Below are positions 57,430-58,121 of a DNA stretch of 64,000 bases, in pieces. Within the stretch, counting starts at the first letter, position 1. Every line of letters starts with the position of its first letter. A program made the translations under genes and the position numbers. Below the pieces are notes generated by a model. The model saw only the letters and a program-made list of their open reading frames with translations, was not told the origin of the DNA and did no database searches. Origin of the DNA: Dictyostelium discoideum (Eukaryota); contig CM000153.2 of NCBI GenBank assembly GCA_000004695.1, positions 3,648,001-3,712,000 of the forward strand, in the 5' to 3' direction.

Positions 57430-58121
57430 TTAATTATTTTTATTTTTTCTACCACCTCTTTTCTTTTTATTTGTAATTATTTCTTCTTCTTCAACTATTG
57501 TTTGAAATTTTTGTGGTTGTTGATTAAATTGTGGTTTTTGTTGTATGATTTGATTTCTTGGTAAATTAAATAATGTTCTTAATTGATTTGGTATATATTG
57601 TGGGAATTTCTTAAAAATTAAAATTGATGCTCCAACTATTCCAACATTTGCTGCCACTGCTGTAAAATAAACCTAAAAAAAAAAAAAAAAATTTTTAAGT
57701 ATTAATAATAAATAAAATAATAATCAATGATTTATAATAATAATAATAATAATAATAAAAATAATAATAATAATAATAATAATAATAATAATAATAATAA
57801 TAATAATAATAATAATAATAATAATAATAATAATAATAATAATAATAATAATAATAATAATAATAAAAATAAAAATAAAAATAATAATAAATATACATTT
57901 TTAAATGATTGTTTTGATCTTTTATGTTTAAAAGCTTGCATTGCCCACATTCCCCCAATCCAACCACCTAATAAACCTGTAAGATGTAAAGTTTTTTCAG
58001 GAACACGCCATTTATGTTGAACTGCTTGTTTTTTATCATAAAAAAATAAACCAGCGGCACCTGCATTTATAGATACAACATATCCACCAATTAAAACTAA
58101 TGGTTTATTAATAATACTCAT
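57430..58121 (-). CDS. DUF1294-family small membrane protein (bacterial-type domain). Exons 57897..58121 and 57430..57672 (about 155 aa). The intron carries a long (AAT)n tract.
   Basis: Exon 1 MSIINKPLVLIGGYVVSINAGAAGLFFYDKKQAVQHKWRVPEKTLHLTGLLGGWIGGMWAMQAFKHKRSKQSFKN matches the DUF1294 signature (G.DK..A....WRIPE.TL....LLGG.GA...M..F.HKT.K..F). Donor AAAAAT|GTATAT, acceptor TTTTTTAG|GTTTATTTT, phase 0. Confidence 0.7.

Follow-up and report, generated by a model that had tools for sequence, protein, structure and literature searches.

The stretch of DNA analysed here is a window of 64,000 nucleotides from Dictyostelium discoideum (assembly GCA_000004695.1, contig CM000153.2, positions 3,648,001 to 3,712,000), and the gene in question, DDB_G0285825, lies on its minus strand at 57430-58121 (all coordinates without another locus name are window positions). 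This gene is already annotated, and it has already been published as a candidate for horizontal gene transfer (HGT) from bacteria. Indeed, it is listed as "DUF1294 - DDB_G0285825 - D. purpureum 86664" in Table 2 of a study that reported its candidates to be missing from the characterised genomes of plants, animals and fungi and to be nested within bacterial clades (Sucgang 2011; PMC3188802), this candidate having first been proposed in the 2005 genome paper. The list, including DUF1294, is repeated in a 2026 preprint on D. giganteum, and orthologues of the bacterial protein YsdA were noted in "Dyctostelium" (Choonee 2007). Our analysis points to an older event: DDB_G0285825 probably belongs to a distinct, patchily distributed eukaryote-type clade whose bacterial ancestry goes back to early eukaryote evolution and not to a transfer into dictyostelids.

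The DDB_G0285825 gene and its surroundings

DDB_G0285825 is a two-exon nuclear gene of D. discoideum that encodes a predicted integral membrane protein of the DUF1294/YsdA family. A preliminary description, made from the sequence alone, had delimited it at 57430-58121, which is exactly the span of the coding sequence (CDS), and the spliced 155-aa product matches exactly XP_638042.1/DDB_G0285825/Q54MN5 of D. discoideum AX4. Exon 1 (57897..58121, minus strand; 225 nt, 75 aa, start ATG at 58121), whose splice model is that of the RefSeq protein, encodes a first transmembrane (TM) helix (TM1), a basic loop DKKQAVQHKWRVPEK, a Gly-rich hairpin LTGLLGGWIGGMWAMQAF and a second basic loop KHKRSKQSFKN. 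The Pfam profile PF06961 (DUF1294) matches aa 20-73 (57903..58064, minus strand) over profile positions 2-55 of 55, with 76.1 bits for a gathering score of 25 and an E-value of 2.5e-21, which bears out the assignment of the N-terminal 75 aa to this domain. The spliceosomal intron (57673..57896, minus strand; 224 nt, GTATAT...(T)17AG) is inserted in phase 0 between N75 and V76, as established by exon mapping. It has a G+C content of 2.2% and consists almost entirely of the (AAT)n array previously noticed, located at 57703..57890 (period 3, 62 copies, 89% matches) and reading (TAA)62 on the plus strand and (ATT)n on the coding strand. Exon 2 (57430..57672, minus strand; 80 codons and TAA) starts with a third hydrophobic helix (57610..57672, minus strand; aa 76-96, VYFTAVAANVGIVGASILIFK), recognised by alignment, hydropathy and the AlphaFold2 (AF2) model and kept in prokaryotic homologues. 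It ends with a low-complexity Q/N/K-rich tail and the TAA codon (57430..57609, minus strand; aa 97-155), delimited by composition, alignment and a predicted local distance difference test (pLDDT) score of 61-69. The Asn/Gln-rich C-terminal extension of the preliminary description is thus confined to the last ~60 aa (N+Q 30%, K+R 22%) and does not include aa 76-96, which form the conserved helix. In the alignment this tail is lineage-specific, except for its KKKRGGRKNKNN end, which is conserved among dictyostelids.

The gene was also said to be domesticated, with AT-rich codons, and its composition is indeed typical of the host genome: the CDS has a G+C content of 27% and a G+C content at third codon positions (GC3) of 8%, compared to a GC3 of 18% in the neighbouring peptidase M28 gene and to a window average of 24.7%. 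Together with the intron and the flanking host genes, this composition places the gene in the nuclear genome. Bacterial contamination, a pseudogene or a chance open reading frame (ORF) in AT-rich DNA would be signalled here by nothing other than the donor GTATAT, which departs from the usual GTAAGT. Such an artefact is refuted by the Pfam match, by the agreement of G+C and GC3 with the host genome, by the residue-by-residue conservation of the spliced product over the exon junction in the alignment of nine dictyostelid species, by the synteny kept among dictyostelids and by the identity of the product to the RefSeq protein, so that its probability is negligible.

Orthologues of DDB_G0285825 were found in D. 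citrinum, D. firmibasis, D. purpureum, Polysphondylium violaceum, Tieghemostelium lacteum, Heterostelium album and Cavenderia fasciculata. According to exon mapping, the phase-0 intron, located at SFKN^VYF, is common to D. discoideum, D. purpureum and T. lacteum (Dictyosteliales) and to H. album (Acytosteliales), whereas the genes of C. fasciculata and P. violaceum are intronless. The order DUF1294-(TPR)-Brix-GNAT, traced by tblastx and Pfam, is kept in three species (D. discoideum, D. purpureum and T. lacteum); H. album retains DUF1294-Brix. Hence, the examination of the orthologous locus suggested in the preliminary description revealed a gene, an intron and a Brix/GNAT neighbourhood conserved in both dictyostelid orders; since intron and synteny are found in both, the gene, its intron and its location are as old as the dictyostelid common ancestor. 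The two intronless copies (C. fasciculata, L003 5001-5693; P. violaceum, L008 5001-5537) are also the two that lie outside this neighbourhood, and their relocation through a reverse-transcribed (retroposed) copy would fit this coincidence. In D. purpureum (L002 5001-5750), the gene has an additional, apparently real intron of 82 nt at RWR^VRE, while an annotated 39-nt "intron" that falls inside a run of poly-Gln seems to be an artefact of the annotation.

The conserved neighbours in the window are the Brix-domain gene (60077..61133, minus strand), identified with Pfam and by tblastx to D. purpureum (L002), H. album (L004) and T. lacteum (L005), and the GNAT acetyltransferase gene (61396..61917, plus strand), identified with the same tools and conserved in D. 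purpureum and T. lacteum. A divergent, multi-exon TPR-repeat gene (58474-59930, plus strand) adjoins DUF1294 in D. purpureum as well; one of its introns holds a long trinucleotide array, read as poly-Tyr in the raw ORF. On the other side, the peptidase M28/PA-domain gene (56076-57269, plus strand) is convergent with DDB_G0285825, its 3' end being 160 nt from the DUF1294 stop codon, and is preceded by an SRP68 gene (53625-55163, plus strand), both according to Pfam. Near the window end, an ORF with a Pfam reverse-transcriptase domain (RVT_1; 62715-63422, plus strand) is presumably a retrotransposon fragment. Besides, two other dictyostelid DUF1294 genes have neighbours with bacterial-type domains: the gene directly upstream in Cavenderia (L003 3052-4038) encodes a GGDEF (diguanylate cyclase-type) protein, and the gene adjoining DUF1294 in Tieghemostelium (L005 3329-4948) encodes a 539-aa product with a periplasmic Phosphonate-bd domain (PF12974).

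Eukaryotic relatives and a shared intron position

An exhaustive phmmer search of 1.84 billion cluster representatives, with exon 1 as the query, returned 3960 matches at E<=1e-3 and 105 at E<=1e-10, the best of which are eukaryotic. The family is overwhelmingly prokaryotic, in agreement with the preliminary description, approximately 90 of the representatives examined being eukaryote-type. The latter include proteins from at least 11 genera of chytrid fungi (among them Geranomyces, Phlyctochytrium, Thoreauomyces, Spizellomyces, Dinochytrium, Chytriomyces, Blyttiomyces, Nowakowskiella, Homolaphlyctis and Clydaea), from the amoebozoan Ceratiomyxa fruticulosa, from Heterolobosea sp. BB2, from the streptophyte alga Klebsormidium nitens and the glaucophyte Cyanophora paradoxa, from the dinoflagellates Symbiodinium natans and Cladocopium goreaui (Symbiodiniaceae), and from MMETSP transcripts. 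The broad eukaryotic distribution that had been named beforehand as an indication of vertical inheritance is therefore largely present. It represents a lower bound, the profile searches having scored 8000 candidates of which few were named. Where genomic copies are available, they lie on large contigs amid ordinary eukaryotic genes and contain introns.

In an alignment of the 97-column core, the identity of the D. discoideum protein reaches 55% with a chytrid protein but only 36% with the best labelled prokaryotic one. The same relation holds for 31 of the 32 labelled eukaryotes, which share 45-59% identity with a eukaryote of another supergroup and 34-41% with the best prokaryote. In a neighbour-joining (NJ) tree of 25 labelled eukaryotes and 23 labelled prokaryotes, the split between the two sets was recovered in 98% of 500 bootstraps; the dictyostelids adjoin Ceratiomyxa, and nine of the ten chytrids group together. 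When 318 sequences were used, 31 of the 32 labelled eukaryotes fell inside a prokaryote-free split of 88 members, with a transfer bootstrap expectation of 0.74. The phylogenetic placement called for in the preliminary description hence puts the dictyostelids with eukaryotes and not inside a bacterial clade. Eukaryote-type sequences are also distinguished by the residues N19, F26, Y28, Q32, G57, M61 and Y77. A pattern scan of 185,579 prokaryotic species, with one genome per species and a reach limited by patterns drawn from a 16-sequence alignment, found only three prokaryotic loci with eukaryote-type motifs in a DUF1294 context, none of them exceeding 47% identity or an aligned length of 57 aa.

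Several individual members of the family deserve mention. The Cyanophora paradoxa protein (P0050) combines the eukaryote-type core with a DUF707 domain, and a protein of an ENA metagenome contig of 1764 bp (P0076) combines it with a C-terminal NIF/FCP1-like phosphatase domain; each may be a fusion or a gene-model artefact. P0091, from a EukProt transcriptome (TRINITY_DN4674), is the one "eukaryotic" sequence with bacterial-type residues (GGWPAG) and is 46% identical to a Pseudomonas protein; it may come from bacterial contamination of the transcriptome or from a separate recent transfer. Finally, DUF1294 domains were counted in medusozoan cnidarians in the Hydra genome paper; none is among the named matches of our searches.

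The dictyostelid intron position was found again in other supergroups. Klebsormidium nitens has three introns in this gene, the third of which, at SFQE^KYY, is in phase 0 at the dictyostelid position. In L015, a GC-rich eukaryote represented by a 1.5-Mb metagenome contig, the sole intron (177 nt, GT..AG, phase 0, SFQD^KYN) is at this position too. By our own estimate, a chance coincidence for the three Klebsormidium introns over ~285 aligned nucleotide positions amounts to ~1%. Four eukaryote-type metagenome or transcriptome proteins (P0066, P0077, P0039 and P0069) behave peculiarly at this site: homology either ends after the residue equivalent to N75 or is interrupted there by an in-frame insert with V as its first residue and Q as its last, as in SFQE[VSHKEG...KWLQ]KYYASVAAN. 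Such inserts look like introns read through by prokaryotic gene callers at the shared site, and this was confirmed for P0039.

These data bear directly on the published reading, according to which the gene was transferred from a bacterium into the dictyostelid or recent amoebozoan lineage, after Amoebozoa had split from plants, animals and fungi, and was then domesticated. Dictyostelids feed on bacteria, and all of them carry the gene, which belongs to an overwhelmingly prokaryotic family. The absence of the candidates from plants, animals and fungi and their position within bacterial clades were also invoked (Sucgang 2011; PMC3188802). However, DDB_G0285825 is neither absent from other eukaryotes nor nested inside a bacterial clade in the NJ trees; its nearest relatives belong to eukaryotes of other supergroups, the eukaryote/prokaryote split is well supported in the labelled set, and Ceratiomyxa stands next to Dictyostelia. 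Moreover, the chytrid genes are on large nuclear contigs and have introns, and the dictyostelid intron position and phase recur in Klebsormidium and L015. A direct transfer therefore appears very unlikely to us. The same table lists ThyX/thyA, TerD/capA, PP_kinase, OsmC, DUF885, DUF1121, DUF1289 and others as D. discoideum candidates (Sucgang 2011). Like them, DDB_G0285825 is kept in D. purpureum and has a host-type composition. The original criterion was that a candidate is not found in the genomes of plants, animals or fungi; DUF1294, which now has many non-amoebozoan eukaryotic homologues, probably in a clade of their own, no longer fits it.

Predicted membrane architecture

The conserved core of the protein (aa 6-96) comprises TM1, a basic loop (D29-K30...R39..E42), the Gly-rich hairpin GGWIGG, a second basic loop (H66-K67..K70) and the last TM. 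Across 318 sequences, conservation reaches 92-100% at ten positions (D29, K30, R39, E42, G52, G53, H66, K67, K70 and F73), and DDB_G0285825 has the conserved residue at each of them. In the AF2 model, helices extend over residues 6-34, 42-50, 54-64 and 71-97, with a pLDDT of ~95 over aa 10-100. Transmembrane-grade hydropathy on the Kyte-Doolittle scale is restricted to 8-26 and 76-94; the Gly-rich helix-break-helix between them appears too weakly hydrophobic, and too short in each arm, for a normal membrane span. Each of the two loops flanking it has an average K+R of about +4, a value common to prokaryotes and eukaryotes.

Fusion proteins of bacteria provide an orientation. Some have an N-terminal cold-shock domain (CSD) or zinc finger and one extra TM before the DUF1294 core, and others have a C-terminal Excalibur or ApbE domain directly after the last TM. 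Cold-shock and zinc-finger domains are cytoplasmic, while Excalibur and ApbE domains are extracytoplasmic. Because fusion partners, loop charges and hydropathy agree, the most likely topology would be N-out/C-out with two TM helices, in which the re-entrant hairpin, GGW(I/P)G(G/A), and both basic loops would be on the cytoplasmic face; a point against it is its reliance on textbook locations of the fusion partners. The protein might oligomerise into a small pore or binding site for an anionic or small polar solute, with the Gly-rich hairpin and the invariant D/K/R/E/H/K cluster as its lining; this mechanism is a low-confidence guess, which also counts against it. No relative was found in the PDB by sequence search, no informative fold match was obtained, and a scan of NCBIfam gave no match.

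A functional analogy can be drawn with KcsA-type architecture, in which a channel subunit has two TM and a re-entrant loop. In DDB_G0285825 as well, two TM would flank a Gly-rich helix-turn that probably dips into the membrane, but this likeness is one of function and not of homology: the DUF1294 hairpin would enter from the cytoplasmic instead of the outer side, there is no sequence or fold match, and a pore or oligomer is only predicted. The protein can also be compared with the type member of PF06961/COG "YsdA", Bacillus subtilis YsdA. The invariant D-K, R..E, GG(W), H-K..K and F are common to both, as are three hydrophobic segments and the charge pattern of the loops, the tip of the hairpin being GGWIGG in DDB_G0285825 and GGWPGA in bacterial DUF1294. 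In contrast to bacterial YsdA, the amoeba protein has the eukaryote-type residues and a 58-aa Q/N/K-rich tail, and its gene has a spliceosomal intron. In B. subtilis, ysdA is reached by read-through from the infC-rpmI-rplT operon (Choonee 2007), whereas the amoeba gene stands alone. The CSD-DUF1294 fusions (PF00313+PF06961) of Proteobacteria and Actinobacteria have the same core, 34-37% identical to that of D. discoideum, and differ by their N-terminal nucleic-acid-binding CSD and their extra TM; no CSD was seen in the eukaryote-clade sequences inspected or among those scanned against Pfam.

Among eukaryotes, the chytrid proteins (Geranomyces variabilis HDU88_000597, Spizellomyces TPX72726.1) and Klebsormidium GAQ89038.1 share the eukaryote-specific residues of DDB_G0285825, and an intron is present at the loop-B/TM3 boundary, at the dictyostelid site in Klebsormidium and 9 nt away in chytrids. 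The termini differ. In dictyostelids, the protein begins directly with TM1 and ends in a long, basic, Q/N-rich tail, while chytrid tails are short. Besides, six of the 11 chytrid proteins, and none of the amoebozoan ones, have an N-terminal extension of 42-146 aa in which R/K/S/T abound and D/E are scarce. By this composition, assessed with no predictor, the extensions resemble a mitochondrial presequence, which may be taken as a hint of a mitochondrial connection.

Origin of the eukaryotic DUF1294 genes

Since the family is dominated by prokaryotes, a bacterial origin of the eukaryotic genes is the sensible default and is likely. The ancient horizontal transfer proposed in the preliminary description would hold as far as its bacterial source is concerned, but, read as a transfer into dictyostelids, it probably holds neither for its timing nor for its recipient. 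Accordingly ranked, an ancient acquisition followed by losses is the most likely history, a spread between eukaryotes is its main rival, and a direct transfer from a bacterium to dictyostelids is unlikely. In the favoured scenario, a single ancient acquisition from bacteria, possibly from the mitochondrial ancestor, or a presence near the eukaryotic root would have given rise to the genes now found in Amoebozoa, chytrid fungi, Heterolobosea, streptophyte and glaucophyte algae and dinoflagellates, and the family would later have been lost from many eukaryotic lineages. For the dictyostelid gene, vertical inheritance with many losses is a better explanation than a transfer confined to that lineage.

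Several observations weigh against this scenario. Strict vertical descent requires many losses, and the transfer of an intron-bearing gene between eukaryotes predicts the same pattern. The trees are all NJ trees, built from 97 columns with a simple distance; the classical bootstrap of the eukaryote split is 0 in the trees of 224 and 318 sequences, owing to rogue short sequences, and the prokaryotic sister group of the eukaryote-type genes is not settled in them. Most members of the eukaryote split are metagenome or transcriptome proteins that bear no species name, and the transcriptome-derived "eukaryotic" P0091 groups with bacteria. No named match from animals, Dikarya, land plants, Acanthamoeba, Physarum or Entamoeba occurs among the matches listed, which does not demonstrate absence. 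As for the intron, two chytrids have a phase-0 intron 9 nt downstream of the shared site, and manual inspection located a phase-1 intron of Symbiodinium 5 nt upstream of it. Such nearby introns suggest that the loop-B/TM3 boundary may be a hot spot for intron gain, which weakens the argument drawn from the shared position.

These points lead to the main rival, in which one eukaryote would have acquired the gene from a bacterium, introns would have been gained, and the gene would then have spread from eukaryote to eukaryote, reaching amoebae, chytrids, algae and dinoflagellates. Such a spread would account for an extremely patchy distribution and for the weak internal branching of the labelled NJ set, in which the monophyly of chytrids has a bootstrap of 2% and Dictyostelia with Ceratiomyxa one of 5%; the intron common to Klebsormidium and Dictyostelia would also be expected if an intron-bearing gene had moved. 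However, the groupings remain broadly taxonomic, since the dictyostelids stand next to Ceratiomyxa and all but one of the ten chytrids form a group, and the dictyostelid location is syntenic and hence old. The targeting-type extensions also differ by lineage, being found in chytrids and not in amoebozoans, which suggests long independent histories. Overall, we regard this spread as unlikely, although it deserves considerably more credit than a direct bacterial transfer.

The ancient acquisition followed by losses can be extended to a more specific proposal, which we hold tentatively and with less confidence than the early date itself. DUF1294 could be a eukaryotic family approximately as old as the last eukaryotic common ancestor, derived from one bacterial acquisition, perhaps with the mitochondrion, and endowed with an ancient phase-0 intron that Dictyostelia and streptophyte algae would both have retained. 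It would have been lost independently in Dikarya, land plants and most or all animals, and because of these losses it would have been mistaken for a lineage-specific transfer. The mitochondrial part of this proposal comes from the presequence-like N-termini of many chytrid members.

The value of this correction is that at least one classical HGT candidate of D. discoideum has many eukaryotic relatives, probably a clade of its own, and an intron common to supergroups. The case of DUF1294 illustrates the dependence of the HGT calls of 2005-2011 on a sparse sampling of eukaryotes. Besides, it provides a small, highly conserved membrane protein that is open to study in a tractable eukaryote, D. 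discoideum.

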